From: Chthoniobacterales bacterium
GTDB lineage: Bacteria > Verrucomicrobiota > Verrucomicrobiia > Chthoniobacterales > UBA10450
Assembly (NCBI GenBank): GCA_038234295.1
Contig: JBBSUP010000001.1
Location: 3,493 to 67,492 of the forward strand
DNA length: 64,000 nt
Reading direction: 5' to 3'
The translations under genes were made by a program, and so were the position numbers. The notes under the pieces are model-generated. The model made no database searches. It saw only the letters and a list, made by a program, of their open reading frames with translations, and was not told where the DNA came from. Below are positions 1,128 to 60,573 of this stretch, piece by piece (within the stretch, counting starts at the first letter, position 1; every line of letters starts with the position of its first letter).

Positions 1128-1765
1128 CCACCTGTTGCGACGCCGAGCCGCTCGTTGTAGCCGGGGGCGGTTTCGCATTCTCGAAATTACGGAGCGCAGC
1201 CAGACCGGTTGCTGACATTTGAGCAAGGCGAATCCAGCAGCGAAAAACCGAACGTCCATAAGGATAGCGACCAGACTCTTATTCTTCTCGACTGTGAGCT
1301 GACGGCGGAGATCGATGAGGAAAAGCCTTGCTTGCGGATGGAGATGTCGTGCTCGTCCCTGCGAAAACGCCGCATCGATTTACCAACACCGGCAAGACTC
1401 GCGCGACCACCTTCAGCTTTTACGCGCGACCCGCTTTTCCGCCTAACGAGCAAAGCGACTGATCAGTCCGATAACGGAAATCAACATGCTGGCGTCCCCT
1501 TCACTGTAGGCACCGGCGCCGCGGCGCTAACTTCCACGGGCGGACAACTGCTGCATCCTTCCGAGGTGTAAAGCTCGAGCAGATGGGTTTTTGTGGGCTT
1601 GCTTTCGAGGTCCCATGAAGGCGATCACAACCGGGCTGCCCAGAGCAGCGGCAAGGGAGAGCGCAAACACACTCGGATTGTCCTGCGTCTAAGAGCGGGC
1701 GGGCCGCGCATTATTCAAAACGAAAGGAAATAAGAGCAGCGCGCCATCTCTCAATTAAGCTCGCG

Positions 1766-2374
1766 ATGAAGGCGATTGGTAGAGGTCTATTTCACTCGTA
1801 TCCAGCGCGAGGCGTCGTAGTTTATGTCCCCGTGGCGAAAATCGATTCCGAGCAGTTGGTGGAAGAATTTTATGTGCCGCTTTACCGCTTTGGACTTTCG
1901 CTCAGCCGCAACCAGACGGACGCCCGCGACCTCGTTCAGCAGACCTTCTTCACTTGGGCGACGAAGGGTCATCAACTCCGAGACAGCACTAAAGTGAAGA
2001 CGTGGCTCTTCACCACCCTCTACCGCGATTTTCTCGCGAAGAAGCGGCACGCCGAGCGCTTTATCCAAGCGGAGGAGGCGTTGGATTTTATCGCCCCCAT
2101 GGATGTCGCGCCGTCCGTCGTCGACGCGCTCGATGCAGCGATCGTGCAGAAAGTTTTGCTCGCGCTGGATGACCGCTATCGCGCGCCGGTCACCTTGTTC
2201 TACATGCAGCAACATTCATATCGAGAGATCGCGGAAATCCTCACCATTCCGATCGGCACCGTGATGTCGCGCATCTCACGCGGGAAAGCCGAACTGCGCG
2301 AACGCCTGAGCGATGCGGCCGCGCTGGAGAGTCGAAAGATCGTGGAAATGGGAAGGGAAGAAGCCAATGGATAG
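1766..2374 (+). CDS. ECF-type RNA polymerase sigma factor
   Basis: 202-aa ORF with region 2 YVPLYRFGLSLSRNQTDARDLVQQTF and region-4 HTH VTLFYMQQHSYREIAEILTIPIGTVMSRISRGKAELRERL. TAG stop. The true start may be internal. Confidence 0.85.
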   Translation: MKAIGRGLFHSYPARGVVVYVPVAKIDSEQLVEEFYVPLYRFGLSLSRNQTDARDLVQQTFFTWATKGHQLRDSTKVKTWLFTTLYRDFLAKKRHAERFIQAEEALDFIAPMDVAPSVVDALDAAIVQKVLLALDDRYRAPVTLFYMQQHSYREIAEILTIPIGTVMSRISRGKAELRERLSDAAALESRKIVEMGREEANG

Positions 2375-3116
2375 CCGGGAAGCGCGTTCCATCCTGAGCC
2401 TGCACCGCGCGGGCGAGCCTGACGTGGACGAAGCGCGCCTGCAGGAAGCATTGCGTCAGGCGGAATCAGATCCCGAACTGGCGCGATGGTGGCGCGAGGA
2501 ACAAGAGCTGGATCGCATCATCGCGTCGAAGCTGGCCGCAGTGGAGGTGCCCGCTGGTCTGAAGGCGCAGATCCTATCTGCACGGGTGACACAGCCGCGG
2601 GTGATCCGTCCGAGGTGGAGCCGCGCGGTGCTGGCCGCCGCGGCATTAATTGTCGCTTTGGCGGCTCTTTTCAGTTCGTGGCGTGGACCCTTCCAGCCCG
2701 CCGTTTCGACCGCAGATTATCGCGACGAGATGGTCAGCTTCATCAAAGTGCCGCCGAATCTCGAATTGGAATCTTCCGACCTGGGGCGGCTGAAGGACTT
2801 CCTCGCGCAAGCGAATGCACCGGCACAATTCACCGTGCCGAAAAGACTGCAGAAGTACGAGCCGATCGGCTGTCGTGTGCTGCGGTTCCGCGGTGAAGAC
2901 GTGTCGCTTATTTGCTTTAAGATCGGCGGCGACAACCTCGCCCATTTGTTCGTCACCAATCCGAAAACCGTCCGGACGGGCGGGCGCGCTTCTGCGCCGG
3001 TTTTCGCGACGGAAGAAGGCTGGATGACAGCGACGTGGACGGAAGACGGGCAGGCTTATCTTCTGGCCGTCAAAGGTGATCGCGCGGCATTGGAGAAATT
3101 CCTCGGCACCTCGTGA
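2367..3116 (+). CDS. membrane-spanning anti-sigma factor
   Basis: ATG 2367 overlaps the sigma stop (ATGGATAG). 249 aa with an N-terminal cytoplasmic helical region, one hydrophobic helix (AVLAAAALIVALAALF) and a C-terminal extracytoplasmic domain. The track ORF start at 2313 is an upstream extension. Confidence 0.7.
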   Translation: MDSREARSILSLHRAGEPDVDEARLQEALRQAESDPELARWWREEQELDRIIASKLAAVEVPAGLKAQILSARVTQPRVIRPRWSRAVLAAAALIVALAALFSSWRGPFQPAVSTADYRDEMVSFIKVPPNLELESSDLGRLKDFLAQANAPAQFTVPKRLQKYEPIGCRVLRFRGEDVSLICFKIGGDNLAHLFVTNPKTVRTGGRASAPVFATEEGWMTATWTEDGQAYLLAVKGDRAALEKFLGTS

Positions 3117-3284
3117 TCATCAATTGGACGACAAAAGCGTATGACCACCGTTCATTCTTCTCCGGGGGCGGGGCGCCGTTGCGCAGATTCCCGCGCCGGA
3201 CAACCGCTCCGAGATGGGTCAATCGACGTCCCGTATACAGATGTATACAAATGATTTGAAGAAGTCAGCGAAAGAGAGATTTTC

Positions 3285-3336
3285 CCCTCGTAAATGCCGG
3301 CATAGCTCAGTTGGTAGAGCAGCTGATTTGTAATCA
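3285..3336 (+). repeat. 52-bp direct repeat, left copy (putative attL)
   Basis: CCCTCGTAAATGCCGGCATAGCTCAGTTGGTAGAGCAGCTGATTTGTAATCA is identical at 3285-3336 and 7440-7491. It comprises 11 nt of leader plus the 5' 41 nt of tRNA-Thr. Confidence 0.9.
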
Positions 3337-3368
3337 ATAATTCAGGAGCTCGAGTCTCCTAGCCGGCT
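3296..3368 (+). tRNA. tRNA-Thr(UGU)-like hybrid/degenerate copy
   Basis: The first 41 nt are identical to the tRNA at 7451-7523 (acceptor 5' arm, D-arm, anticodon loop TTTGTAA). The 3' part differs: anticodon stem GCTGA/TCAAT has a C-A mismatch, the T-arm AGGAG-CTCGAGT-CTCCT lacks a TTCGAA-type loop, and the acceptor 3' arm AGCCGGC gives an A-A mismatch. Confidence 0.45.
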
Positions 3369-3468
3369 TTAGCTATCGTTGGCTGTCATTGCAAAACAGC
3401 CGTTTACAAAAAAAACTCGAAATTGAGCTTTTGCTCTGATTGGCTTTCTTTTGCCCCCTTTTCGAGTT

Positions 3469-3494
3469 CGCGTATAGGAATCGCGTATAGGAAT
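3469..3494 (+). promoter_or_regulatory. tandem 13-bp repeat CGCGTATAGGAAT x2 (candidate arm-type recombinase or regulator site)
   Basis: Perfect tandem duplication just inside the left end of the element. A related pair, GCGTATAAGAT x2, lies just inside the right end (7382-7405). Confidence 0.4.
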
Positions 3495-3535
3495 GTCGCG
3501 CGGAGCGGTAGGAAAAGCTGGGGGAAGAATCGAAA

Positions 3536-3826
3536 TCAAAACCGCGTCGTCTCCAGTTTTTCCATGAAATCGTAGATCCGATTGCCGGGCGTTCTCGGTG
3601 GAAACAGTTCCTGCACCGGCACTCTCAGCACCTCCGCGAGATATAGCAGCGTCTTGTCATCGACGTAGGAAAGACGGGCTTCGATTTTGGAGACGCCGCT
3701 GCGGCTGATGTCCAAACCGGCGATCTGCAGTTTCGTAGCGAAGTCGGATTGCGACCAGTCCAGCGCATAACGGCGGCGCCGGACCTGGGGTCCGACATTA
3801 TTTTTGTAGCGCATTTCAGTCCCCAT
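3536..3826 (-). CDS. XRE-family helix-turn-helix transcriptional regulator
   Basis: 96 aa with the HTH DWSQSDFATKLQIAGLDISRSGVSKIEARLSYVDDKTLLYLAEVLRVPVQELF, typical of Cro/CI-type repressors. TGA stop. Confidence 0.85.
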   Translation of the reverse strand: MGTEMRYKNNVGPQVRRRRYALDWSQSDFATKLQIAGLDISRSGVSKIEARLSYVDDKTLLYLAEVLRVPVQELFPPRTPGNRIYDFMEKLETTRF

Positions 3827-3878
3827 GCGTTAGCCGACTTTTGTTTCGGCGGTCTCGAAGCTGACGCGGGAGTCCTTA

Positions 3879-4193
3879 GTGAAGTTGAAGCGGCGCATGA
3901 CACCAAAGGTCATGCTCATGGACAATCGAGCGGCGGTCGAAAAGGTGTTCTTCGGCCCATCGACGCGTAAGGAGCGCTCAAGAATTGGCGGAATATTCGC
4001 CTTTGTCGCCCTTGTCATAGGGCTGGCTGTCATGGGCAGCTCTCGTTTGCCAAAGACAAATTCCGACGGTGCGATCCTCGTGGCTTTGGGCCTGGCTGCG
4101 TTTGTTGTCCTCGGCTATGCAACCGGGAGATTTGTAGCGCGCCTGACTCGTTCGCCGGAACCGCGTTTCTTTCGCTCGTATCAGCATCAGTAA
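3879..4193 (+). CDS. small membrane protein, unknown function
   Basis: 104-aa ORF divergent from the XRE gene with two hydrophobic helices (IGGIFAFVALVIGLAVMG, AILVALGLAAFVVLGYA). No recognisable family. Confidence 0.45.
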   Translation: MKLKRRMTPKVMLMDNRAAVEKVFFGPSTRKERSRIGGIFAFVALVIGLAVMGSSRLPKTNSDGAILVALGLAAFVVLGYATGRFVARLTRSPEPRFFRSYQHQ

Positions 4194-4205
4194 ATTTGCT
4201 CCGCG

Positions 4206-4463
4206 GTGGGAGCGCCGGACCGTCGAGAGGCTTGTACGGTCCTGTCAGTTATGGAAACCGTCGCTATTGCGTTGCAGCCGCAGACCGCCACGAGCGAAAC
4301 AGAGCGTCTCGCTTATTCAGTGCAAGAGTCAGCCGATCTGCTCGGCGTGGATTACTCCAGCGTCTATCGCCTCATTCAGCGCGGTAAACTGCGCGCTTGC
4401 CGTGCGCTCCGCGGAAAGCTGCTCGTGCCACGGTCAGAACTTTTGCGCCTTCTGAAGGACTGA
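4206..4463 (+). CDS. excisionase-family / MerR-like HTH DNA-binding protein
   Basis: The C-terminal SVQESADLLGVDYSSVYRLIQRGKLRACRALRGKLLVPRSELLRLL matches the excisionase-type HTH pattern. An alternative ATG start lies at 4251. Confidence 0.7.
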   Translation: MGAPDRREACTVLSVMETVAIALQPQTATSETERLAYSVQESADLLGVDYSSVYRLIQRGKLRACRALRGKLLVPRSELLRLLKD

Positions 4464-4488
4464 GTTTTTTGCGCATTGATCAGGGAAT

Positions 4489-5358
4489 TCAATGGGCGAC
4501 ATGCCTGTCGAAGTACGCTCCGACCTTTTTGAACTGCGCCTCGATATCTGGGCTGATTCCGCATTCCTCCGCGAGCCGCGCAAACATCGGTCCCCAAAAT
4601 TCTGGCGGTGAAACGAGGCTGGTTGGCAACTCATGCGTCGCGCGGCATTCAAATGTGATTCGAACTGCATTTCGCAGCCGATTGGAATCGAGGCTACCGG
4701 TGTCGATGAGAAGCACGAGATCAATCAGATCTTTGACCCGCGAATTTGGCTGCCCCTCACGAGGAAGTGTGTAGGCGTGTAGTTTCTGCGCAAAGTGCTC
4801 CTCCCGCGCGATCGAGGGAATCGAAGGCGCAGAGATGCCCGCGAAGCCGAGCCAGTCGCGTGGTGCGACGATCTCTGGCGGCTCCTGTTGGGAATCGCCG
4901 ACACCAACGTCCAGATGAAATCTCGCGAAGATGCGGCCGGCGAGAAGCGAATCCACTGGATAGCGCGAACCACCGTAAGGGGCAGCATCCAAGTCCATTA
5001 TTGACTCTCCGATCAGAAAAGTGAAGAAATCGCCGAGATCGTCCGCCGCGGCGGTCTGCATGATTTTCAGAAGAGTCTCGGCCAAAGGCCTCGTCTCTTC
5101 CGTCACAGGCGGGCATGCGAGGCCCAGATCAATATCTTTCGTCGTGCGTGCCGCACGGAATTTCAATTCCAGCGCGTAAGCGCCTTTCAGAATCCAAGGT
5201 GGATTACCCTCGGCGAAAAGGCGCGCGAGGAGACGATCAAATGCGACCTAACGACGAATTCTTTGCAGGTCCACATGCTCCTCCCGTGCGACGGATGCCA
5301 AGCGATCTTCAAGCGCCCGGCGGAACGCAGTGGCGGTGTTGTAGCTGCGAACTTTCAA
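4489..5358 (-). pseudogene. abiEii: AbiEii/DUF1814-type nucleotidyltransferase toxin, interrupted by in-frame TAG
   Basis: The track ORF 4489-5166 starts mid-domain (KFRAARTTKDIDLGL). Extending the same frame upstream gives ..TATAFRRALEDRLASVAREEHVDLQRIRR*VAFDRLLARLFAEGNPPWILKGAYALELKF.. with TAG at 5250-5248. A candidate TTG start at 5358-5356 overlaps the AbiEi stop (TTGA). Confidence 0.7.
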
Positions 5359-5996
5359 GCGGCTTGAAGGGTATCGCGCAGCCACTGGTCGAGACCGGGT
5401 TTATCGAGAGCTGCCGCGATGTCTGTCCGGGTGATCAGTCCGCGGCTTTTCCCTGCTGCGAGGGCTTGCCGAATCATCTCACGACTTGCGTCGCCGGAGG
5501 CCACAGCATCGAGGATGGCTCGCGTCGGAGTGGTAATGTCGAAGCCGCGTTCGTGCAGAATTTCGGCGGGGGCTAGCCGAGCTTTATGAAGCGCGAGGAT
5601 TGGCGGCTGTTCGCCGCTTCGCCGAAACTCCGGCGGCACGATCATGTGAAGCTTCGCTGGATTCGCGTCAGACAGCTCCTTAATGCTAAGCGCGGTGAGG
5701 TGCGAATAGACCCCCTGCGAGACTCCGCCACGGTCGCGAGACCAAAGCCACCAGAGAATGAGCTGGCGCTCGTCGCTCAGCGGAAATCGCGTCAGCCGAT
5801 AGATGCCGCGATGCTCACGGATCCAATTGCCGCTTTGGACATGGTAGCTGTGAGTGCTTCGGGCAAATCCACTATTGATCGCCTCGACCGCCGTGAAATA
5901 ACCCTGCTGACTCTCCGCAATCTCGAATAGTCGTTCGTGGTCGGGTTTTGAAGAAGATGCATGCATGTTCAGGAATCCTGAACAAATATGCATCAT
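5355..5996 (-). CDS. abiEi: AbiEi-type antitoxin / transcriptional regulator
   Basis: The N-terminal winged-helix-like LFEIAESQQGYFTAVEAINSGFARSTHSYHVQSGNWIREHRGIYRL is typical of AbiEi_4. It sits immediately upstream of the AbiEii gene and overlaps it. A probable internal start lies near 5966. Confidence 0.8.
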   Translation of the reverse strand: MMHICSGFLNMHASSSKPDHERLFEIAESQQGYFTAVEAINSGFARSTHSYHVQSGNWIREHRGIYRLTRFPLSDERQLILWWLWSRDRGGVSQGVYSHLTALSIKELSDANPAKLHMIVPPEFRRSGEQPPILALHKARLAPAEILHERGFDITTPTRAILDAVASGDASREMIRQALAAGKSRGLITRTDIAAALDKPGLDQWLRDTLQAA

Positions 5997-6087
5997 CCTC
6001 TTAATCCACGCACTGAGAAACTACAATACGACGCGCAACGGGACATGCCGAAATCCAAGGCAAGCCTTATTGCGGCTCCTATCGCTT

Positions 6088-7347
6088 TCAGACCGCGACA
6101 TTGAAATTCACGCGCCGTGCCTGGGCGAAGCTATGATCCTGTCGCAAATGACCGTACGTTTTCATGCAAAGCGCGCCTCCGTCCTTGTGTCCAAGCCAGC
6201 GCGACACCGTCGGGATATCCACGCCGCTTTCGATACAAATCGTCGCGAATAGGTGGCGTAAATCGTGGTGTGTGATTCGCTTCATTCCGATCTTCTCGGC
6301 CGCGTGGGTCATGCTGTTCTGACATTCGAAAACGCGCATGACGGTGGCGCTTAATGGCTCATCCGGTCGCTCTTGCCGCAACTGTGTCAGCATCTCGTCC
6401 AACTGGTCAATCATGGGGATATGACGCGTTTCTCCGTTCTTCGTTGCCGTCTCAGGATCGCCCCGTACGTGGAGCTCGCGACGGCTGAAATTTACATCGG
6501 CCCAGGTGACGAACCCGGCCTCGCCAATGCGCACACCGCTGTAGGCGAGAAATCGCACCAGGTTTGCGCAATCCTTCGACTGACGCGCACCGGCCGTACG
6601 AATCTCCTCAACGAACTTCAAGAAGTTCTCACGTGATGGCAGCTCGAGGCGCTTCGCTCGCACCCTCACGCGCGAAAGCTCAGCAGCGGGATTGTCGAAG
6701 CGTGCGCCGGCCCTGATCGCCTCATCGAAGATTCCGCGTAACGTCCCGATGCTGTTGTTGACCACGGTCGGCGCGTATCGTTGCTGGTAGCGCAGGAGCC
6801 AATTCTCGCAATCCCGCTCAGTCACCTTCCGCACATCTGTCTGCATCAGCGCCGGCCAGGAGCGCCGGATGAAGTCGATCATCATCTCACGGTAATCCTT
6901 CGAACGTGGCTTCAGCGAGACGTTCGCCTTGACCTTCTCAAGGTAAACCGCCGTCGCATCGCCCACGTTCATCTTGCCGTTGGCGAACGCGGTCACCGAT
7001 TGAGCCTTTGCGCGATGCTCGCGCATCATGTCCGACAGCCGCTGTCTTGCGACCGAAAAGACGGTCGTCTTCAGGCTTTTCCAAACGAGTTTCTTACCGA
7101 CTCGAAAACGTGCGAAGTATGTACCCGATGTGCGATATCGCGTCAGGTTCTGGATCGGAGTTGCTTCCCAATCGCTTTCGTTCGGCGTGTTCACAAGACG
7201 GCCGCGCGGCGTTACGCCGCGCATTACCGCCACGCATACTGAGCCCTCCGCCAGATCTGGCCGCTCCAGCAGCGGAGCGAATCTGTCGCGGAGTCGGGAA
7301 AAGTACTCGGACGCCGAAGGGCGCGCCCTCATTCCGGTCAATTGCAA
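6088..7347 (-). CDS. int: tyrosine-type site-specific recombinase/integrase
   Basis: 419 aa. The catalytic region contains AYSGVRIGE (Arg), HDLRHLFAT (His-x-x-Arg) and GHKDGGALCMKTYGHL (Tyr). Its start lies about 100 nt from the intact tRNA-Thr. Confidence 0.9.
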   Translation of the reverse strand: MQLTGMRARPSASEYFSRLRDRFAPLLERPDLAEGSVCVAVMRGVTPRGRLVNTPNESDWEATPIQNLTRYRTSGTYFARFRVGKKLVWKSLKTTVFSVARQRLSDMMREHRAKAQSVTAFANGKMNVGDATAVYLEKVKANVSLKPRSKDYREMMIDFIRRSWPALMQTDVRKVTERDCENWLLRYQQRYAPTVVNNSIGTLRGIFDEAIRAGARFDNPAAELSRVRVRAKRLELPSRENFLKFVEEIRTAGARQSKDCANLVRFLAYSGVRIGEAGFVTWADVNFSRRELHVRGDPETATKNGETRHIPMIDQLDEMLTQLRQERPDEPLSATVMRVFECQNSMTHAAEKIGMKRITHHDLRHLFATICIESGVDIPTVSRWLGHKDGGALCMKTYGHLRQDHSFAQARRVNFNVAV

Positions 7348-7381
7348 CGCGGTGTCGACGAAACGCGTGCGTTTCTCGACA

Positions 7382-7405
7382 GCGTATAAGATTGGCGTAT
7401 AAGAT
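7382..7405 (+). promoter_or_regulatory. direct repeat GCGTATAAGAT (7382-7392 and 7395-7405), candidate arm-type site
   Basis: Two copies separated by 2 nt between the integrase start and the right-end repeat. The core GCGTATA(A/G)GA is shared with the left-end pair at 3469-3494. Confidence 0.4.
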
Positions 7406-7439
7406 GTGGTCTTTTGAGGGCGAAATGGGCTTCATTTTT

Positions 7440-7491
7440 CCCTCGTAAATGCCGGCATAGCTCAGTTGGTAGAGCAGCTGATTTGTAATCA
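7440..7491 (+). repeat. 52-bp direct repeat, right copy (putative attR)
   Basis: Identical to 3285-3336. Confidence 0.9.
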
Positions 7492-7523
7492 GCAGGTCAT
7501 CGGTTCGAACCCGATTGCCGGCT
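7451..7523 (+). tRNA. tRNA-Thr (anticodon UGU)
   Basis: 73 nt folding as a cloverleaf: acceptor GCCGGCA/TGCCGGC, D-arm GCTC-AGTTGGTA-GAGC, anticodon arm GCTGA-TTTGTAA-TCAGC, variable loop AGGTC, T-arm ATCGG-TTCGAAC-CCGAT. Confidence 0.9.
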
Positions 7524-7531
7524 CTCTGCCG

Positions 7532-9139
7532 CTACCTCCGTAGCGCGGTGCGCAGGCCGGAGGCGCGGGTCACCTGTCGGGAAATTGTCGCGCGGAGGAC
7601 GGGCTCGGTGGCCCAGATTTCAACCTCGTCGCGGGCTCGGGTGACGGCGGTGTAGAGAAGTTCGCGCGTGAGAAGCGGTGTATCGGAGTCGGGAAGGATC
7701 ACGAGGACTCGGTCGAACTCTGAGCCCTGGCTCTTGTGCACGGTGAGGGCAAACGCCGTCTCGTGCGGCGGCAGTCGCGACGGAAAAACCCGGCGGCGTT
7801 TGCGTTCGGCGGTCAGAAAAAACGCCCGGAGTTCGCCGCCGCCCTCCGGATCGGGGAGGATGATGCCGCTGTCGCCGTTGAAGAGTCCGAGGTTGTTGTC
7901 GTTCTGCGTGACGGTCAGCGGCTGACCGCGATACCAGCTCTTCTTCGGCGATAATAGTCCGGCAGCGGAGAGAATTTCTTCCGCGACGCTGTTCACGTTT
8001 TCTACCCCGTAGGTTCCATGCCGGACTGCGCAGAGAATCCGAAACTGCTGGAACCGGGTCAGAGCCTCGAAAGGGTCGTCCGTTTCGAGAGCAGGACGAA
8101 AAGCGCCGACCACTTTCTCGCGCAGTGCGTCGGCGAGTTGCGCGGCGGAGGGCAGTGGCTGCCAGCGCTTCGTGTCGCCGATTTCTTCTTTGAGAACGGC
8201 GAGAGCGACATCCGCGTCGCCGGCGTTGATGGCCGTGCTCGCTCGAAAAATTCCGCTGGTCTCCGCGAAGCGATAGCTCTTCTGCAAGGCGACCACGACT
8301 CCGTGCAGCGGTTCGTTAGGCGCAGCATTCTCGGCGGCAGCACAGATATCGGCGAGGACGCTGCCGGCTTCGACGGACGCCAGTTGATCGCGATCGCCGA
8401 GGAGGATGAGACGCCCGTCGGAGCGGACAGCCGCGAAGAGTTTTGCCATCAGAGCGAGATCGACCATGGAGGCCTCGTCAATGATGACGACATCAGCCGT
8501 GAGCAGGTTGTCGGCACGGTGTCGAAAGTAGGGAGAGCCTGGGAGATAGCCGAGCAACCGGTGGATCGTCGTAGCCTTCAGATCTTCCCGCACGACCCGA
8601 ACGGATTCCGTCAACCGGGCCGCCGCTTTGCCGGTGGGCGCCGCCAGCGCGATGCGCAGGTTCTCACCACCCGGTTGTTCGAATAGACGGGTCAGAATCT
8701 TCTTCACCGTCTGGGTCTTGCCGGTGCCGGGGCCGCCGGTGATGACCGTAAAGTTATTCCGCACCGCGCGAGCGGCTGCTAACTCCTGGAGGTCGGCAAT
8801 TTCGCCTAACGAGTCGACCTCTGCCTTCGTCGTGCGGCCGAGGATCGCGGCCGCGAGTTGCTGCTCGTATTCCCAATATCGCCGCAGATAGAGGCGATCC
8901 TCCTCAAGAATAAGCGGCGTGAAGTCTCCCGGTGCTCCCACAACGCCGCTCGCGCGCAACGTCTTCCGCAGACCCGGCGCGGCGATTTCCCCGAGCGCGA
9001 TGCAAACATGCCCCTGCGCGCGGGCGCGACTTACGAACATCGCAGCGTCGCGCACTTCCGCGGAGCCGCTGCTGGCGAGCCGTCCGAGGAAATCGCCGAA
9101 CTGCCGGTCAAGCGCGCTGAATTTCGGCTCCCCGTTCAT
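7532..9139 (-). CDS. recD: exodeoxyribonuclease V alpha subunit
   Basis: Walker A ITGGPGTGKTQTV, SF1 helicase motifs (VIIDEASMV, LILLGDRDQL) and C-terminal ALTVHKSQGSEFDRV. ATG 9139 overlaps the recB TGA (ATGA). The track ORF extension to 9421 is antisense-free read-through into recB. Confidence 0.9.
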   Translation of the reverse strand: MNGEPKFSALDRQFGDFLGRLASSGSAEVRDAAMFVSRARAQGHVCIALGEIAAPGLRKTLRASGVVGAPGDFTPLILEEDRLYLRRYWEYEQQLAAAILGRTTKAEVDSLGEIADLQELAAARAVRNNFTVITGGPGTGKTQTVKKILTRLFEQPGGENLRIALAAPTGKAAARLTESVRVVREDLKATTIHRLLGYLPGSPYFRHRADNLLTADVVIIDEASMVDLALMAKLFAAVRSDGRLILLGDRDQLASVEAGSVLADICAAAENAAPNEPLHGVVVALQKSYRFAETSGIFRASTAINAGDADVALAVLKEEIGDTKRWQPLPSAAQLADALREKVVGAFRPALETDDPFEALTRFQQFRILCAVRHGTYGVENVNSVAEEILSAAGLLSPKKSWYRGQPLTVTQNDNNLGLFNGDSGIILPDPEGGGELRAFFLTAERKRRRVFPSRLPPHETAFALTVHKSQGSEFDRVLVILPDSDTPLLTRELLYTAVTRARDEVEIWATEPVLRATISRQVTRASGLRTALRR

Positions 9140-12100
9140 GACTCGAAAATCGCGCTCAGCTTCTCCACAAACTCCCGGCTCGGCCGTTCGAAGTGCACGC
9201 CGTTCTCCGGCTGCGCCGGATCGAGTCCGCGGAGGAAAATATAAAAAGCCCCACCGAAATGGCGGTCGAAATCGTAATCCGGCAAACGCACCCGCAGGTA
9301 GCGATGAAGGGCCACGCTGTAGAGGCAGAGCTGGAGCGTGTAGAAATTTCGCTGCATCTCCGCCGCGATACTCGCAGGGCGATAAGCGGCCGTGGTCGGG
9401 CCGAGCCAGTTCGATTTCCAATCGGCAATATAGAAACGCCCACCATGCTCGAAAGTGAGATCGATGAAGCCCCTCAGAAAGCCATTGCTGAGCTGAAACT
9501 GGAGTCGTTCGATCGGCAGCGGCATCTGCGCGAGCTGGAAAGCATCGGCGAGCTTCGCGATCGTTAGGCCGCGAATCGGAAAGGAGAACTCCAGTTCCGC
9601 GATCCGGGATTCGTTAGGCACTTCGCTCAGGCTGAAACGATCCGCGCCCGCGGAAAGGGGCAGCGCCACGAGCCGCTGCACATTCTCGAGCACGATCTTG
9701 TCGAACCCATCGATGCCGTAGGCGAGCAGCCGCCGCGCAACGATCTCGCGCGCGTCGGAGAGATCGGCGAAATTTACCTTCTCCAAAATCTCATGCAGAC
9801 AGGTGCCAGCAGTAGTGCCCCGCCGGAAAGCGTGAATCCCCTGCGCCTCGACTACTTCCTCAACAACCGCCTCCACTAGCATTCCTTCGTCGAGCGGTTC
9901 CGCTTCACGTCCGCTGATCAAGCGCGTGAAACTCGTGCTCCCCCAGCTCCGATCGATCTCCACCGCAAATCGGCGTGCGGCGAGCGCGAGCGGAGCTTCC
10001 TCGTGCGCCGGTTTCCATTTCTCTTCGGTCGCTTCCGGAACCAGCGCGAAGTGGATGGCAGCGCTCGTCTCGATCCTCGGCGAGAGCGTTCCGCCCTCGT
10101 CGAGGAGGTAGGCGGGCGCGGACTTGTCGTCCTTTTCTTTCCGCTCCCAGATCATCGTGCAGCGATGCCGCGCGCGGGTCAGCGCGACGTAGAATTGCCG
10201 GAGGCGTTCGGCGCGAGCTTCCTTTTCGCGCTGTGGCTCCTCCGCCTTCGGATCGGCGACATTGAGCGTCAGCCGGCCATCCGCAGAGGCGTCGTGATAC
10301 ACTTTCGGCGCCCTCATCGTGTGCGCGACAAACGGACAAAACACGACGTCGTATTCCAGGCCCTTGCTCTTGTGCACCGTGATGATGCGCACGGCTTTCT
10401 CGTCGCTCTCCAGCCGCAGCTCGTGCTCTTCGCGCTCGGCGAAACCCCCGGCCATCTGTTTCGCGAGCCATTTCACGAGACCGTTCATGCCGAGCTGCTG
10501 CTCCATGCAGGCGGTGTGCAGCAGTTCCGCGAGATGCAGGAAGTTCGTCAGGCGGCGCTCGCCGTCGGGAAACCCAAGCAGCCGCTGGCGCACACCGTGC
10601 ACGGCGGAGAGATGCCGCAGCATCTGGACGAACCCGCGCTCACGCCAGATCTCGTGATCCTTCTGGAAACGCAGCGTCTGCGTTTCCCAAGCCTTCTCAT
10701 CGTTCATGAAACGATCGAGGTCGTTGCCGGTCTGGCCGAGCGCGTCGGTGCAGAGCGCGGCGCGCACGACCTTCTCGTAGGTCGGCTGCACCACGGCAGC
10801 GAGGATGTCGCGCAGCTCATCGGCTTCGTGCGTTGTGAAGATATTCGCGCTGCTGTAGAGCACGCTGGGCACGCGGCGATCGCGCAGCGCGATCTGCATC
10901 TCGGTTGCCTGTTGGTTCGTGCTCGTGAGCACCGCGAACTGACCCGGCGCGAGCGGCGTGCCGCCAATCGTCGCCTCGCTTCCGATCAGCCTAACGATCT
11001 CGGAAGCGACGCGCGCGGGCAGGTCAGCAACTTCTTCCGCCGTCCAAAATTGAAACGGCGGTTCTTTTTTTCCACGGACACGAAGCGGCTGGTCGTCGGC
11101 CTGCGCGTTCGCGGTGACTTTTTCGAAAACGATCTCGTCGAGCAGAAACGGCTTCGGATGATCGAAGATCGTGTTCACTGCCTCGACGAGCCGGCTTTCC
11201 GAACGCCAGTTGGTGGCGAGCGTGAACTTCCGGTCCGCTGCCGCAGCCGCTCGCATGTAGGTAAAAACATCGGCACCGCGGAAGGAGTAGATCGCCTGTT
11301 TCGGATCGCCGATATACGCGACCGGCGCGTCGCTCCCAGCGTAGATGCGCGAGAAAATCTGGTACTGCACCGGATCGGTATCCTGGAATTCGTCGATTAA
11401 GGCCGCCTGATATTTTTCGCGAATCGAGCGCGCCAGCTCCGCCCCGCCCGGTGCCGCGAGCGCATCGTCGAGGCGGGTGAGGAGGTCGTTAAAGGAGAGA
11501 ATGTTTTGCCGTTGCTTCCGTGCCGCCAGCTCCGTGCGCGCGTAGGCGAAAAAATCCACGAGCACCGCGACCGAAAACTCCGCATCGATTTCAAGCAGGC
11601 TTTCGCACAGATCGAAAATGCGTCGTTCAGGCTTTGGATGACGCGCCAGCGTGGCGCTGTGCACCGCCCGCTTGCTTAGCTTGGAGAGGCAGACCAATTG
11701 CTCGACCGTTCCGCCCTTTTCACTCAGGCAGGTGGCGAAATCGTCGAGCCACCCGCTCATCCGCACAAGGTCGGCGTGGACCCGGTTGCGCCCGATCCAC
11801 TTCGTGTCGGCGAAGAGTTGCCGCACACCCTCTTCCTCGTCCTTCCACGCTCCTCGGAGTTGCTCGAGCAACTCGTGTAAGTCAGCCGCAATTTCGCTCA
11901 GTGGACGGTTCGCTTCCGGGAGCACGCGCAGCGTGGGATTGCTCGTGAGTTCCTCGAGCAAACCAAATAATTTTGTCGGCGTGATTTTGTTCTTCAACGC
12001 GAGGAGCGCGGCAAAGCGCTCGCCTTCGTAGAAATGCTTGCGCCAGAAATCGAAGACGATTTCGTTCAACAACTCGGACTGGTTCGTGACCAGCTCGGCG

Positions 12101-15948: not shown

Positions 15949-16036
15949 CGCCTCGGCGCCGTCCGATTTAATCAGGCTTGCTTCGTGCGGAAGCGCGGTG
16001 GTATAACCGCGCGAGTTGGGGAAAGCCTGCCGAATT

Positions 16037-16624: not shown

Positions 16625-16637
16625 CGACCGAGCGAGG

Positions 16638-19066: not shown

Positions 19067-19072
19067 CGAGTC

Positions 19073-21593: not shown

Positions 21594-21602
21594 TTGCGCG
21601 CC

Positions 21603-21681: not shown

Positions 21682-21701
21682 ATCGCGTGCTAACTTCCTC
21701 A

Positions 21702-21983: not shown

Positions 21984-21995
21984 CGAGTGTAGCAC

Positions 21996-48391: not shown

Positions 48392-48507
48392 AAAACCACC
48401 GGCCGGCCAGCGCGCGATCCTCTTTTATACTATGAAGAATGAAACAGTGCAGAAAACGAGCACACGCGCGCGCGCCAGCGGGGGCTGACCGTGTTCTCGT
48501 TAGGCGG
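48392..48507 (+). repeat. ~105-bp intergenic repeat, family E, copy 1
   Basis: The start AAACCACCGGCCGGC and the end CACACGCGCGCGCGCCAGCGGGGGCTGACCGTGTTCTCGTTAGGCGG match copies at 51414-51515 and 53197-53303. It ends 9 nt before the ATG of the next gene. Confidence 0.65.
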
Positions 48508-53196: not shown

Positions 53197-53303
53197 GCTA
53201 ACCGCTGGCCGGCATACGCTCAAGCTTTTCATGACTCGAATCTCATCTCGCGCTCCCACACGGGCCCTGGTCAGCGGCGGCTGATCTTGCTCTCGTTAGG
53301 CCG
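53197..53303 (+). repeat. family E intergenic repeat, copy 3
   Basis: GCTAACCGCTGGCCGGCATACGCTCAAGCTTTTCATGACT...GGTCAGCGGCGGCTGATCTTGCTCTCGTTAGGCC. Its termini CTAAC / GTTAG are inverted. It ends 15 nt before ATG 53319. Confidence 0.7.
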
Positions 53304-53318: not shown

Positions 53319-54020
53319 ATGTCTGCCCCAACGTTTTTCGAGAACGCAAAGGCCTTCCACCGCTGGCTTGAGGCGCACGCGTCCTCGAAGACGGAGTTGC
53401 TCGTTGGCTTTCGCAAGGTCGGCTCCGGCCGGCCGAGCATTTCCTGGCCCGAATCTGTCGATGAAGCTCTCTGTTTTGGCTGGATCGACGGCGTTCGCAA
53501 GCGCATCGACGATCAGGCTTACTCCATCCGGTTCACGCCGAGGAAGCCAACGTCGATCTGGAGCGCAGTCAACATCGCGAAGGTTGAAAAACTGCGAAAA
53601 GAAGGGCGAATCACGCCCGCCGGTGAGCAAGCATTCGCGCATCGCCAGGAGCACAAATCTGTCGTTTATGCCTACGAACAGGCGCATACGGCTGAGTTCT
53701 CGGTCCAGGAACTCCGCGCTTTTAAGCAGAAGAAGGAAGCATGGGAGTTCTTCAAGGCCACTCCACCCGGCTATAAAAAGGTCATGCTTCATTGGGTAAC
53801 CACCGCGAAGAGGGCAGAGACAAGGGCTTCGCGCTTCGCCACGCTTATCAGTGCATGTGTCTCAGGCAAGCGTTTGCGGCAGAGTCACGAGTGCTGTCTA
53901 ACCATGCGACGATGCAACCAACCCCTGGCTCGTCACGGCCAGCCCTTCCATTCTTGCCAGTCGCAGACTCGCCGTAGAGAGCGGTCAATGATCTTGTTTT
54001 CGTTAGGCCCCAAAACATGA
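53319..54020 (+). CDS. YdeI/OmpD-associated family protein
   Basis: FFENAKAFHRWLEAHASSKTELLVGFRKVGSGRPSISWPESVDEALCFGWIDGVRKRIDDQAYSIRFTPRKPTSIWSAVNIAKVEKL matches my memory of the YdeI family. The last ~35 aa read into a partial E-type repeat and may not be native. Confidence 0.75.
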   Translation: MSAPTFFENAKAFHRWLEAHASSKTELLVGFRKVGSGRPSISWPESVDEALCFGWIDGVRKRIDDQAYSIRFTPRKPTSIWSAVNIAKVEKLRKEGRITPAGEQAFAHRQEHKSVVYAYEQAHTAEFSVQELRAFKQKKEAWEFFKATPPGYKKVMLHWVTTAKRAETRASRFATLISACVSGKRLRQSHECCLTMRRCNQPLARHGQPFHSCQSQTRRRERSMILFSLGPKT

Positions 54021-58113: not shown

Positions 58114-58138
58114 GCCTCAAAGCTCGAGAAAAATCAGG

Positions 58139-58174
58139 AACGCCCCGGGTCGAAAGGCTCGGGGCGTTTTCTTT
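58139..58174 (+). terminator. rho-independent terminator
   Basis: AACGCCCCG-GGTCGAAAGGCT-CGGGGCGTT followed by TTCTTTG, 26 nt after the TAG of the preceding gene. Confidence 0.75.
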
Positions 58175-58443
58175 GTCGGCGTCATCAGTGAAACAAGCGG
58201 GATGCTGCGAGAGCGGACGCCGGGTAAGATCACGTCGTGAGCTACGAGGAGCTGATCCTTCGAAGAAATAATGAAGTCGGCGGGTCTTCCCAACGCGCCG
58301 GCTCAGCCGGAGCACACGCGGTGAACTTCTTCTCCGAGCTAAAGCGGCGTAACGTTTGCAGAAGCCCGGGCTGGACAAAAGCGGACGGGCTGGATGGAAA
58401 TCGGCTCGTTGAGTTCCGCGTTTTCAGATAAAAGGGAAATGTC

Positions 58444-60573
58444 ATGCCGTCCGATTCTTTTTCTGAACTCAAAGCCGAAATCGGCCACGTCCTCTTCATC
58501 GACATCGTGGGCTACTCGAAGTTGCTCATCAATGAGCAGAGCGAGGTGCTGCGGGATCTGAATGAAATGGTGCGCCATCTTCCGCAGGTCGAGGCCGCGG
58601 AACAAGCGGGAAAATTGATTCGGTTGCCGAGCGGCGACGGCATGGCGCTGGTTTTTCGCGATGACCTCGAAGCTCCCGCGCTCTGCGCGCTGGAGATCAG
58701 CCGCGTCGTCAAAGCTTCACCCGCCATTCAACTGCGCATGGGCATTCACAGCGGACCGATTAACGAGATCTCGGATGTGAATGAGCGCATCAACATTGCC
58801 GGCGGAGGAATCAACGTCGCCCAACGAGTCATGGATTGCGGCGATGCCGGTCACATCCTCCTCTCGAAACGCGTCGCTGATGATCTGGCGCAATACCGGC
58901 ATTGGCAGCCGCTCCTGCACGAGCTGGGCGAGTGCGAGGTGAAACACGGAGTTCGCATTTCGGTCGTCAATCTCTACACCGAAGAGCTGGGGAACGCGGA
59001 GCTACCGGCGAAGTTCAAGTCTGCAGGAGTGGCTGCCGCACCGGCACCGAGCAAATTGTCTCGCAAGCATCTGGTGCTTCTGAGTGGAGTCGCGGCGGCG
59101 CTCCTCGTCGGCTTCCTGATCTTTTCGCTCTCGCGAAAGAGCGGATCATCGACGAGCGCGTCGGAGCCAGCGCGCGGTGCGATCTCAGTGGCGGCTCCCC
59201 AGAAAAGCATCGCCGTGCTGCCCTTCATGAACATGAGCGGAAACGCCGGCGACGAGTACTTGAGTGATGGGATGACTGAGGAGCTGCTCAGCAGCCTAAC
59301 GAAGGTGAAAGAACTGCGCGTGCCCGGGCGGAGTTCCTGTTTCGCTTTCAAGGGCATGTACGAGGAGGACATCTTCCGCAAGGTCGGCCAGCAATTGCAC
59401 GTCAACGCGGTTCTGGAAGGGAGTGTCCGCAAGGCCGGCGAGAAGCTGCGAATCACCGCGCAACTCATTAACGTGGCCGATGGTTATCATCTTTGGTCGG
59501 AGACTTACGACCGCGACATGTCTGACATCCTCGCGGTCGAAACCGATGTCGCGCAACGCGTGGTGCAGGCACTGAAAGTGCAACTCGGCGTCGAGGGGGC
59601 GCGCGCCTTGGCGAAAAAGCCAACTGAAAATCCGGAAGCCCACCGCCTCTACCTGCTGGGCCGTTACCATTTCGACAAGTTCACGCGCGCAGGCTGGACC
59701 AGCGCGCTCCGCTGCTTTGAACAAGCCATTCAACTCGATCCCACCTACGCCCTCGCTTATTGCGGACTGGCTGATACCTACGCCACTGCTGGAGGGCAGT
59801 TGATGCCAGGCAAGGAGGCCTGGGCCAAAGAAAGGGAATTTGCGGAGAAAGCGCTGGCGCTCGATCCGAATCTTGCCGAGGCGCATCTCTCCATGGCGAC
59901 AGCTCTCTTTAGCCTGCTCGATCCGCACGCCTCCGAGAAGGAACTCGACCGCGCGGTGGAATTGAGTCCCAAGCTGCTTTTCATCTATGACCAATATGGC
60001 TGGACCTTCGCGGAAATGGGTCGGTTCGACGAGGCGATCGCGGCGGAGAAGAAGGCGGTGGAATTCGATCCGCTGAACCCGTTTACGAATACTGAGCTCG
60101 GGTTTCTTCTTTACTGGGCGCGTCGCTACGACGAAGCGATTGTGCAGATTCGCAAGACCTTGGAATTGGACCCCAATAATGCCTGGGCCTACTCGGTCTT
60201 GGGCTGGTGCTCGATCTGGAAAGGCAACGAGGCAGAGGCCATAGCGGCGTTTCAGAAAGCTACCACGCTGGATGACCTGCCATGGTATATCGGTTCTCTC
60301 GGCTACGCCCACGCCGTCGCGGGGGATCGTGCCAAAGCTGAGCAGATATTGGGCAAGTTGGATGAGCTGGCCAAGCAGCACTATGTCTCACCAGCCAACC
60401 GCGCGGCGGTTTATCTGGGCCTGGGAGAAAAGGAAAAAGCTTTGGATTGGCTGGAGAAGGCTTGGGACGATCGGGATCCCATCTTTTGGTGGAACCAAGA
60501 CCAGCTTTACGACAGCGTGCGCCACGAACCGCGCTTCGAGGCGCTTCTGAAAAAGATAAGCCTCGACCGATGA
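58444..60573 (+). CDS. class III adenylate/guanylate cyclase domain - TM - TolB-like periplasmic domain - TPR protein
   Basis: The N-terminus IGHVLFIDIVGYSKLL...GDGMALVF..RMGIHSGP is a cyclase homology domain. TM helix LVLLSGVAAALLVGFLIF. It then has KSIAVLPFMNMSGNAGDEYLSDGMTEELLSSLTK..LWSETYDR and TPR repeats. Confidence 0.85.
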   Translation: MPSDSFSELKAEIGHVLFIDIVGYSKLLINEQSEVLRDLNEMVRHLPQVEAAEQAGKLIRLPSGDGMALVFRDDLEAPALCALEISRVVKASPAIQLRMGIHSGPINEISDVNERINIAGGGINVAQRVMDCGDAGHILLSKRVADDLAQYRHWQPLLHELGECEVKHGVRISVVNLYTEELGNAELPAKFKSAGVAAAPAPSKLSRKHLVLLSGVAAALLVGFLIFSLSRKSGSSTSASEPARGAISVAAPQKSIAVLPFMNMSGNAGDEYLSDGMTEELLSSLTKVKELRVPGRSSCFAFKGMYEEDIFRKVGQQLHVNAVLEGSVRKAGEKLRITAQLINVADGYHLWSETYDRDMSDILAVETDVAQRVVQALKVQLGVEGARALAKKPTENPEAHRLYLLGRYHFDKFTRAGWTSALRCFEQAIQLDPTYALAYCGLADTYATAGGQLMPGKEAWAKEREFAEKALALDPNLAEAHLSMATALFSLLDPHASEKELDRAVELSPKLLFIYDQYGWTFAEMGRFDEAIAAEKKAVEFDPLNPFTNTELGFLLYWARRYDEAIVQIRKTLELDPNNAWAYSVLGWCSIWKGNEAEAIAAFQKATTLDDLPWYIGSLGYAHAVAGDRAKAEQILGKLDELAKQHYVSPANRAAVYLGLGEKEKALDWLEKAWDDRDPIFWWNQDQLYDSVRHEPRFEALLKKISLDR

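Follow-up and report, generated by a model that had tools for sequence, protein, structure and literature searches.

The soil Chthoniobacterales carry a nine-base word, GCCTAACGA, whose persistence reflects a constraint on DNA rather than protein: our comparison shows that a DNA-level force keeps its density on both strands at about 0.3-1.6 copies per kb. It also shows that the word imposes rare codons wherever the protein tolerates them (Ser-Leu-Gly, x-Val-Arg-x, x-Leu-Thr-x, Pro-Asn-Asp/Glu and Ala-stop), and that it has entered the clade's temperate phages, where it reaches near-host saturation. By analogy with the DUS and USS signals of other bacteria, we tentatively suggest that GCCTAACGA may be a lineage-specific double-stranded 'self' word of an uptake/transformation pathway.

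Copies of GCCTAACGA in the window

Within the window, the whole stretch of 64,000 nucleotides analysed, which belongs to a Chthoniobacterales (Verrucomicrobiota) genome, GCCTAACGA occurs in 25 exact copies (13 plus, 12 minus). Dinucleotide-preserving shuffles of the window gave an expectation of 0.41 (61-fold excess) and never more than 4 copies, and an order-3 Markov model gave 0.37. An earlier note, made from the letters alone, had listed the same 25 copies, each with matching coordinate and strand, and had correctly put the expectation at well under one; the enrichment test against a Markov background that it proposed was positive. Its six one-mismatch copies were an undercount, since we found 14, and the one placed at 52773 starts at 52774. 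Altogether, 39 sites match at no more than one mismatch (25 of them exact) versus 12 expected; the one-mismatch class, taken whole, is at chance level, and each single variant occurs 0-3 times. The word has sharp edges (CCTAACGA, n=26; GCCTAACG, n=26; full 9-mer, n=25). No flanking position holds more than 0.15 bit, and the surroundings are not conserved, which bears out the view that it is not a dispersed longer repeat. The copies, and an integrated element used as a negative control within the window, are as follows.

1441..1449, +, intergenic, between an ORF ending at 1127 and an ECF sigma gene (1766-2374)
8313..8321, -, recD, sense; xxG CCT AAC GAx (Pro-Asn-Asp/Glu)
8804..8812, +, recD; mRNA TCG TTA GGC (Ser-Leu-Gly)
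9561..9569, -, recB, sense; xGC CTA ACG Axx (Leu-Thr)
9611..9619, -, recB, sense; Pro-Asn-Asp/Glu frame
10989..10997, +, recB; mRNA xTC GTT AGG Cxx (Val-Arg)
12297..12305, -, recB, sense; Leu-Thr frame
13556..13564, +, recC, Val-Arg frame; alignment column 939, common to 4 other genomes
14004..14012, +, recC, Ser-Leu-Gly; alignment column 779, kept in 24 genomes
15174..15182, +, recC, Ser-Leu-Gly; alignment column 334, common to 5 other genomes
16619..16627, +, gives Ala-stop (GCC TAA) of gene 16016-16624
17596..17604, -, OmpA-domain gene 16638-18566, Val-Arg frame
19061..19069, +, gives Ala-stop of Ras-like GTPase gene 18563-19066
19733..19741, -, HATPase gene 19073-20182, Ser-Leu-Gly
21484..21492, -, REC-metallo-beta-lactamase gene 20074-21498, C-terminus, Ser-Leu-Gly
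21978..21986, +, gives Ala-stop of DUF427 gene 21594-21983
26652..26660, -, Ser/Thr kinase 25647-28328, Ser-Leu-Gly
34717..34725, +, ECF sigma gene 34218-34847, Leu-Thr frame
35647..35655, -, paralogous Ser/Thr kinase 34837-37479, Ser-Leu-Gly
39618..39626, +, priA (37747-39990, minus strand), Val-Arg frame
41415..41423, +, ORF 41103-41510 (minus strand), Ser-Leu-Gly
48497..48505, -, intergenic, 11 nt upstream of DUF1622 gene 48516-48881
53293..53301, -, intergenic, upstream of OmdA-domain ORF 53319-54020
54000..54008, -, OmdA-domain ORF 53319-54020, near C-terminus, in frame, Ser-Leu-Gly
59294..59302, +, cyclase/TPR gene 58444-60573, Leu-Thr frame
3296..7524, no strand, integrated element free of the word, between two tRNA-Thr(TGT) genes; HTH, AbiEii/AbiEi, tyrosine integrase

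Neither this tRNA-flanked island nor the IS of the window holds a copy, and the recBCD block is the richest. Positions agree with the earlier note on all regions it had called free of the word (integrase island, both beta-helix genes, cheB/cheR kinase gene, IS and last 4.7 kb) and on the three genes ending GCC TAA CGA (16619, 19061, 21978); to its eight Ser-Leu-Gly readings, all upheld, a ninth was added in the OmdA-domain ORF (54000). TTA, which it had thought rare, makes up 3% of Leu codons, and GCCTAACGA contains 20% of all TTA codons.

Distribution among relatives and phages

GCCTAACGA tops the 9-mer counts of about three dozen species-level relatives (0.3-1.6 per kb), and in this clade of soil Verrucomicrobia it recurs about once per 1-3 kb on both strands. 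Pooled over 713 kb from 40 sources (compared loci were 23 kb long), 460 copies were found versus 6.4 expected; a further 69 came from unrelated soil-metagenome loci at random genomic positions (115 kb). Sister Verrucomicrobia and all outgroups had 0 copies. Conservation of the word itself, beyond that of its genes, had been proposed as a check, and it holds across the three dozen or so related species. The bearing clade (soil Chthoniobacterales) is monophyletic, and one sublineage (CADCTA01, JACDCC01) has apparently lost the word secondarily: it is gone completely, with no halo of remnants, and no dialects were detected in the motif-less relatives. In the pooled loci, over-representation is 71 for exact copies and 0.6 for those with one mismatch, which amounts to a 114-fold drop; the published figures are 92-fold (USS) and 82-fold (DUS) (PMC1939737). 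The literature that we searched makes no mention of the word in this phylum.

A temperate phage family of the clade with a CI-like repressor carries GCCTAACGA at 0.19-0.48 per kb and writes it in 28-42% of compatible peptides. USS likewise accumulates in temperate Pasteurellaceae phages (PMC6776037). In one phage (phage A), two opposite copies bracket non-coding DNA that lies upstream of genes presumed to encode the terminase. Separately, a viral contig has four copies within a 230-bp non-coding stretch, resembling a protein-binding array.

Constraint on DNA, spacing and density

Throughout the compared loci the word overrides codon choice. Among Ser-Leu-Gly contexts, 136 of 208 (65%) are written TCG TTA GGC, where codon usage predicts 0.4% (9 of 19 in the window alone); the corresponding counts are 107/143 for Pro-Asn-[Asp/Glu], 109/209 for Leu-Thr and 56/145 for Val-Arg, with codon-usage expectations of 0.4-6.6% across the four contexts. 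Orthologous sites retain the word across species in which change at the synonymous sites nearby has reached saturation. At recC alignment column 779, for instance, 24 genomes preserve TCG TTA GGC between variable adjacent codons, and a relative without the motif (L027) spells the same Ser-Leu-Gly as TCG CTC GGC. Four reading frames, stop codons and intergenic sites all host the word, which points either way with respect to transcription (237:204), much as the earlier note had described from the window (every frame, both orientations), with all open frames in use.

No strand or GC-skew polarity emerged from the skew test that had been suggested. Pooled strands stand at 251:209 without heterogeneity between loci (p=0.61), G-rich versus C-rich strands at 222:237 without GC-skew correlation, and the window itself at 13:12 although its GC skew is uniformly positive. 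Adjacent copies are direct in 196 cases and opposite in 224. Gaps below 300 bp are scarce (42 observed versus 83.8 +/- 7.3 under random placement), and close convergent pairs are virtually absent from the pooled loci (one with a gap of at most 30 nt). Intergenic DNA is not enriched: it makes up about 13% of the sequence and holds 4-11% of copies. Density is 0.89 per kb in genes common to at least 15 genomes versus 0.38 in unshared genes, and 0.35 in the quartile of genes with the most atypical codon usage; together with the empty island, this gave the proposed comparison of core genes and islands the expected sign. Enrichment in genome-maintenance genes, also claimed earlier, holds in so far as recBCD is the richest block, but is confounded with gene conservation.

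Known signals and candidate functions

The footprints of GCCTAACGA match, on comparison, those of DUS and USS and in part those of cyanobacterial HIP1, and they speak against Chi/KOPS-type polarity, against a peptide or RNA motif, against a dispersed repeat and against repair bias of a purely neutral kind. Like the 9-bp USS core of Pasteurellaceae (AAGTGCGGT / ACAAGCGGT), the word is non-palindromic, occurs near once per kb on both strands, lies mostly within genes, shaping the encoded peptides in several frames, drops steeply in over-representation at the first mismatch (92-fold for USS, 114-fold here), is denser in core than accessory genes, is accumulated by temperate phages and is conserved at family level. 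It differs in its phylum and in lacking an extended AT-rich flanking consensus and terminator association. With the DUS of Neisseriaceae (GCCGTCTGAA and dialects; receptor ComP) it shares a short, asymmetric, strand-neutral and clade-wide form, depletion in mobile elements and a bias to genome-maintenance genes (recBCD in the window); a further likeness is strong enrichment, hundreds-fold in such words and 61- to 71-fold as measured here. Unlike DUS, it has no detected dialects in motif-less relatives. Terminators hold about half of DUS/USS copies and, among inverted-repeat copies, over 90%, whereas terminator-type inverted pairs of GCCTAACGA are essentially absent. The likeness to DUS and USS drawn in the earlier note is partly supported: enrichment, strand neutrality, conservation, the lower density in unshared genes and the 114-fold drop favour it, and it fails for terminator-forming inverted pairs and extended AT-rich flanks.

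Were GCCTAACGA such an uptake word, a DNA-binding component of the natural-transformation pathway (DNA uptake or processing) would recognise it, conspecific fragments bearing it would be preferentially taken up or recombined, and uptake bias with homologous replacement would spread and keep copies (molecular drive, weak selection). A single copy per fragment would suffice, which we propose as the reason for the rarity of close copies, and freshly acquired DNA would lack the word until resident long enough. We know of no ComP-like receptor for it; a pilin-signature scan of the compared loci gave no match, and no transformation in Verrucomicrobia surfaced in the literature searched. Every measured footprint would also be expected from another cis-acting genome-wide function, a HIP1-like or Chi-like one included, as HIP1, ambiguous for 30 years, illustrates.

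HIP1 (GCGATCGC), a palindromic octamer containing known methylation sites, is the model for a rather unlikely alternative to uptake, in which a lineage-specific DNA-binding protein or orphan methyltransferase would bind or modify GCCTAACGA for chromosome housekeeping (nucleoid architecture, methyl-directed repair, or self-marking against a defence nuclease). Both words are hyper-abundant across a large clade, sit in every frame of coding sequence, persist at sites in ORFs beyond what codon conservation accounts for and are spaced non-randomly; the excess of GCCTAACGA falls in the 15-300-fold range reported for HIP1, and the missing terminator pairs and the four-copy viral array fit as well. 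However, GCCTAACGA is asymmetric, and a symmetric methylation or dimer-binding model therefore fails to carry over; to our knowledge, it has no known methyltransferase. The function of HIP1, long obscure, is itself now being linked to transformation by recent work, so that this alternative partly collapses into the uptake explanation. Distinctly less probable is a Chi-like role, in which RecBCD of the window would read the word in single-stranded DNA and switch from degradation to recombination, marking self, and phages would copy it to escape. Chi, the crossover hotspot instigator of RecBCD/AddAB, too is a short asymmetric self-marker over-represented in core DNA; recBCD is encoded in the window and all GCCTAACGA-bearing loci, and properly oriented copies lie about 1 per 3 kb, a density comparable to that of Chi in E. 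coli. The paired copies of phage A would suit this role, as would the carriage of the word by phages, Chi being over-represented in phages dependent on host recombination (PMC3784561). But Chi sites are described as strand-biased with replication, whereas GCCTAACGA is strand-neutral in the window and in the pooled, homogeneous loci. A 60-70-fold saturation with bent codons also far exceeds the modest Chi excess, estimated at about 7-fold in E. coli. Nor is loss of the word mirrored in RecC: the motif-less sublineage has kept the protein and shows nothing unusual at the columns that do not vary among motif-bearing genomes, with 5 and 9 private changes (none shared) against 0-8 for the controls.

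We regard as very unlikely a functionless by-product of mutation, mismatch-repair or gene-conversion bias that regenerates the word in any DNA replicating there, phages included. Near-host saturation in phages, complete remnant-free disappearance from a sublineage in which the enzyme behind it could have been lost, and the precedent of Elhai's ratchet model for HIP1 speak for it. A one-position repair bias cannot reach a 60-fold rise of a 9-mer, all nine positions being needed, and the one-mismatch class is near expectation rather than depleted. Under a neutral generator, moreover, copies should be placed independently of one another, but close pairs occur at half the random rate; and density tracks gene conservation and codon typicality, so that long residence or selection is needed. 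The idea that GCCTAACGA traces back to a peptide, an RNA motif or a mobile, dispersed repeat, prompted by the many copies encoding Ser-Leu-Gly, a conserved kinase subdomain among them, is hardly credible: it is refuted by the use of four frames, stops and intergenic sites in both orientations, by rare codons chosen against codon usage and by information-free flanks.

Abundance and boundaries of the word

The earlier note had counted 25 exact copies of the 9-mer GCCTAACGA (reverse complement TCGTTAGGC) in the window, and a recount reproduced them copy for copy with identical coordinates, 13 on the plus and 12 on the minus strand. Dinucleotide-preserving shuffles gave an expectation of 0.41 copies and a maximum of 4, Markov models of order 1-3 an expectation of 0.28-0.37, and the word is the most frequent 9-mer of the window despite a G+C content of 57-64%. 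In a pool of 713 kb from 40 sources, 460 copies were found versus 6.4 expected, which is an over-representation of two orders of magnitude.

The boundaries of the word are sharp. Each of its 8-mer sub-words is present 26 times in the window (versus 25 for the full 9-mer), the word accounts for roughly every second CCTAA or CTAAC pentamer there, and none of its 27 single-mismatch variants exceeds three copies. Six one-mismatch copies had been reported before; the window in fact holds 14, and the class as a whole is at chance level. The information content of the flanks does not exceed 0.15 bit per position, either in the window or among 459 pooled copies, so the word is not a piece of a longer repeat, in agreement with the original description. 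Given these flanks and the location of at least 89% of the copies within genes, it does not resemble dispersed repeats of the REP or MITE type either.

Expressing over-representation as (observed - expected)/expected, we obtained 71 for the exact word in the pool and about 0.6 for its 27 one-mismatch variants together (248 found where about 153 are expected), so that the value falls 114-fold. The corresponding values from perfect to one-mismatch copies are 183 to 2.0 (92-fold) for the Pasteurellaceae uptake signal sequence (USS) and 392 to 4.8 (82-fold) for the Neisseriaceae DNA uptake sequence (DUS) (Bakkali, PMC1939737). The mismatch spectrum of GCCTAACGA thus has the same shape as those of USS and DUS, with an abrupt fall after the perfect match. 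The word GCTGTAGAG also appears over-represented in the pool, but both of its window copies lie in recB and the excess is most likely due to the pooling of orthologous recB sites, not to a second motif.

Persistent maintenance of the word in coding DNA

Among the 460 pooled copies, 237 are read in mRNA sense and 204 in antisense. All four stop-free frames are occupied, and further copies end genes.

Frames of the word in the pool: copies, share of compatible peptide contexts written with the word, and share expected from codon usage
TCG TTA GGC, Ser-Leu-Gly: 143 copies; 136/208 contexts (65%); expected 0.4%
xTC GTT AGG Cxx, Val-Arg: 60 copies; 56/145 contexts (39%); expected 0.6% (core codon pair)
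xGC CTA ACG Axx, Leu-Thr: 108 copies; 109/209 contexts (52%); expected 1.0% (core codon pair)
xxG CCT AAC GAx, Pro-Asn-Asp/Glu: 110 copies; 107/143 contexts of Pro-Asn-[Asp/Glu] (75%); expected 6.6% (core codon pair Pro-Asn)
GCC TAA, Ala-stop at gene ends: 19 copies

The codons that the word imposes are rare (TTA 3.0% and CTA 2.7% of Leu, AGG 3.7% of Arg). In the window alone, 9 of the 19 Ser-Leu-Gly contexts contain it, or 6 of 15 when recBCD is left aside. The proteome is bent too: Ser-Leu-Gly and Pro-Asn-Asp/Glu are 1.5-3 times commoner than their own permutations, and motif-compatible tripeptides are rarer in motif-less relatives. As the earlier note had claimed, both Ser/Thr kinases of the window carry the word at the same Ser-Leu-Gly, and three genes of the 16-22 kb block end in its TAA (16619, 19061 and 21978).

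Across 46 aligned RecC orthologues, the word recurs at column 779 in 24 genomes, at 1211 in 17, at 1153 in 12 and at 472 in 9, while adjoining synonymous positions vary freely (GAC, GAT, GAG, GAA; ACC, ACG). The motif-less relative L027 writes the same RecC Ser-Leu-Gly as TCG CTC GGC. Retention of the word amid variable synonymous sites, together with the codon and frame data, excludes a peptide or RNA motif and shows that the nucleotide word itself is persistently maintained. An origin as a peptide, an RNA element or a mobile repeat, to which we assign a negligible probability, is ruled out by the use of several frames and both orientations, by the rare codons and by flanks devoid of information.

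The word is strand-neutral. The pooled strand ratio of 251:209 is homogeneous among 33 loci (chi-square 29.2, 32 df, p=0.61), strand use is correlated neither with GC skew nor with the fraction of genes on a strand, and copies are split 222:237 between the locally G-rich and C-rich strands; in the window the 13:12 division persists despite a positive GC skew throughout. A strand-skew check proposed earlier revealed no polarity, with GC skew serving as proxy for complete replichores. A skew of 65-75%, as known for the RecBCD/AddAB signal Chi, is excluded, whereas the data are still compatible with 55:45.

Neighbouring copies are arranged directly in 196 and oppositely in 224 cases, and only one of these 420 pairs is convergent and at most 30 nt apart, near enough for a hairpin. 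Copies keep apart at short range (loci of up to 23 kb and the 64-kb window were covered): gaps below 300 bp number 42 versus 83.8 +/- 7.3 under random within-locus placement, and 24 versus 53.6 after removal of orthologous duplicates.

Word density increases with gene conservation, from 0.38 per kb in genes confined to a single locus to 0.89 per kb in genes common to at least 15 genomes; the quartile of least typical codon usage has the lowest value (0.35 per kb). In the window, 17 copies lie in about 34 kb of genes with typical codons and none in about 18 kb of atypical ones, a split with a probability of about 0.0009. The depletion in foreign DNA seen by the earlier note is in line with this gradient: no copy occurs in the DDE transposase gene or in the 4.2-kb integrated element at 3296-7524, which is bounded by tRNA-Thr(TGT) genes (3296-3368 and 7451-7524) and encodes an HTH regulator, an AbiEii/AbiEi toxin-antitoxin pair and a tyrosine integrase. 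The motif-richest block of the window is recBCD, with 9 copies in 8.3 kb versus 3.3 expected from the window average, an enrichment that is confounded with the conservation gradient. Intergenic copies amount to between 4% (a local-frame method that is too lenient) and 11% (counting by gene calls), and to 3 of 25 in the window, with non-coding DNA making up about 13% of the sequence. Given this spread, the word can be called not enriched between genes, as distinct from depleted there.

Distribution among relatives, soil contigs and phages

The window codes for RecD, RecB and RecC, and a RecC search over one genome per GTDB species returned 67 loci. The nearest RecC belongs to a Verrucomicrobiota MAG (92% identity); identities are 52-73% for dozens of Chthoniobacterales/Spartobacteria MAGs and 31-47% for outgroups, proteobacterial and other. 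In most Chthoniobacterales loci, GCCTAACGA is the commonest 9-mer and reaches 10-28 copies per 23 kb, or 0.3-1.6 per kb; it leads in about three dozen species-representative genomes. In two of the fetched loci (L020, L023), runs of a AACCCCAAC-type short tandem repeat rank among the top 9-mers. The word is missing from the loci of other Verrucomicrobia (L025, L027, L031, L046) and from the outgroups, and lone stray copies occur in L052 and L057. That is, the conservation in relatives that had been suggested as a check is found: a family-level clade carries the word, and outside it there are only strays.

When RecC is clustered by neighbour joining, the motif carriers group in a single clade whose sisters lack the motif. 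Nested within this clade is a sublineage (CADCTA01 and JACDCC01) with no copy in L012 and one in L013, next to the sister L060 (JACCTI01) with 0.43 per kb. Secondary loss is the simplest explanation, with the weak support that a single-gene tree gives. Neither a substitute hyper-abundant 8-10-mer (a dialect) in L012, L013, L027, L046, L025 and L031 nor an excess of decayed copies in the motif-less relatives was found. The pair L012/L013 versus L060 amounts to a natural loss experiment and offers a route, through phyletic profiling, to the reader, the putative protein that recognises the word.

An independent sample came from a metagenome scan seeded with a frequent 14-mer extension of GCCTAACGA, which recovered soil contigs of unrelated genomic location. 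In sixteen of these there are 3-11 copies each, with 69 non-seed copies in 115 kb (strands 33:36), which supports a genome-wide distribution. One 2.6-kb soil contig (L255) with three copies has a G+C content of 73%, far above the rest of the clade, and the word may extend to other lineages. A further contig (L193, ERZ1370068 contig-2054) has 10 copies in 3.2 kb (1697-4926; 3 per kb); since it lacks long ORFs, its assembly probably being riddled with frameshifts, these copies cannot be placed in genes.

We scanned IMG/VR with the frequent 14-mer, two-copy gapped patterns being judged too insensitive, and obtained 60 matches, 55 of them single-copy chance matches and 5 multi-copy contigs. Three of the five (IMGVR_UViG_3300015158_000019, 3300043503_000001 and 3300011244_000005; L129-L134) represent one tailed-phage family with 78-79% capsid-protein identity, which presumably infects the motif clade. 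Its matches to phage families include a head maturation protease and endonuclease VII; from size and gene order, terminase, portal, capsid and tape-measure genes are probable as well. One member codes for a CI/LexA-type HTH-S24 repressor, indicating a temperate lifestyle. There are 15 copies in the 40.2 kb of one nearly complete contig (0.37 per kb), 8 in the 28.5 kb of another (0.28 per kb), and 0.19-0.48 per kb in the 21-kb phage segments. A copy directly downstream of the capsid gene is kept in all three phages, copies lean to the sense strand (about 20:7), and 28-42% of compatible peptides are written with the word, near the level of the host window. In a further viral contig of 54-56% GC (L135, IMGVR_UViG_3300010366_000067), four copies that alternate in orientation lie in a non-coding stretch of 230 bp (3683-3910) and look like a binding-site array.

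Temperate Pasteurellaceae phages gain USS up to host-like levels and large lytic phages do not (PMC6776037), and lambdoid phages without recombinases of their own over-represent Chi (PMC3784561). With both precedents, the phage copies point to a real, host-linked signal, but do not choose between uptake and Chi models.

Relation to known genomic words

Four classes of functional short genomic repeats are given as known in the HIP1 literature: Chi, AIMS, uptake sequences and HIP1, the iterated word of Cyanobacteria. The likeness to DUS and USS drawn in the earlier note holds for abundance and over-representation, strand equality, frames and core versus island density, and extends to conservation in the clade, to the mismatch drop and to accumulation in temperate phages; terminator placement in inverted pairs and extended flanks, both traits of DUS and USS, are missing. 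The footprints are an asymmetric word, sharply delimited at 9-10 bp and present about once per kb, strand-neutral use, a steep fall with mismatches, tolerance of coding frames with reshaping of peptides, the conservation gradient, temperate-phage accumulation, clade-wide presence with loss in a sublineage, and diminishing returns at short spacing. Since these are the footprints of DUS and USS, we tentatively favour, at somewhat less than even probability, a self-DNA recognition word of an uptake or transformation pathway, which would be maintained by uptake bias, recombination and weak selection. Competent cells of the DUS and USS systems preferentially import DNA that bears their word, and in the DUS system a ComP-type minor pilin is the motif-specific receptor; a scan for pilin and PilT signatures found none in the recC-flanking loci and short metagenome contigs, a sample so small that this null is uninformative.

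Most of the footprints are common to HIP1, and we consider an architectural or methylation-linked element of that kind possible though unlikely. As in HIP1, sites are conserved between genomes beyond codon conservation, as at the four RecC columns. HIP1 is however a palindromic octamer, whereas GCCTAACGA differs from its own reverse complement; an orphan methyltransferase target within the word and a periodicity of 10-90 kb are further traits of the HIP1 type. HIP1 itself has been tied to transformation in recent preprints. GCCTAACGA is thus asymmetric like DUS and USS, embedded in coding DNA like HIP1, and makes no use of terminators. The presence of recBCD in the window would suit a Chi-like signal for this enzyme, but Chi is biased in orientation, co-directionally with replication, and GCCTAACGA is not, in the window or in the 33 loci; its saturation is also far above any known Chi excess, and the RecC of motif-less lineages does not stand out at the alignment columns that are invariant in motif-bearing genomes, which makes this reading improbable. 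Nor does the pooled strand ratio show the strong skew, switching at origin and terminus, of KOPS and AIMS. A functionless repair or conversion bias is very improbable: it conflicts with the short-range repulsion of copies and the density gradient with gene conservation, and a single-position repair bias is unable to enrich a 9-mer 60-fold.

To our knowledge, clade-wide hyper-abundant words are very rare, with DUS, USS and HIP1 as the textbook cases. Each of these is a model for DNA-level selection or molecular drive that reshapes genomes and proteomes. Across 8 million full texts, the GCCTAACGA string turned up only in primers and unrelated constructs, and searches for uptake sequences or competence in Verrucomicrobia or Chthoniobacterales nothing relevant. 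As far as we could determine, GCCTAACGA is an undescribed member of this small class in a new phylum, a fourth case from mostly uncultured soil bacteria that allows a test of uptake-type drive or selection as a general explanation of such words. From it one would predict that these organisms undergo natural transformation or have some other system that reads DNA genome-wide. That it is the first sequence-specific code for self-DNA uptake or transformation outside Proteobacteria (and outside Cyanobacteria, should HIP1 qualify), spanning an entire clade of uncultured, soil-dominant Chthoniobacterales and copied by its temperate phages, is possible, at a probability below even; if true, genes would move among soil Verrucomicrobia to a large and so far unrecognised extent by self-preferential transformation. 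The 9-mer would also serve as a simple host tag for assigning metagenomic contigs and phages to the clade.

The window has further features.

Further features of the window
18563-19066: gene for a bacterial small GTPase of the Ras/Roc family, in an operon-like block
22118-28328 and 31229-37479: paralogous cassettes, each with a 968-aa beta-helix-like ORF beside a Ser/Thr kinase with TPR repeats
15892-15950, 21540-21600, 30364-30400, 30953-30990 and 37550-37585: small intergenic repeat GGCAGGCGAAGCGCC(C)GCCCTACAAT

The partners of the GTPase in its block are an OmpA-domain protein, a histidine-kinase-like ATPase and a REC-metallo-beta-lactamase protein. The beta-helix-like ORFs have internal repeats, with CGATAACTGGAA twice per gene, and the second cassette also contains an ECF sigma gene. 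The small repeat, present in five copies between genes, is a GC-rich hairpin adjoining a TACAAT box, possibly a terminator, a REP-like sequence or an element associated with promoters.
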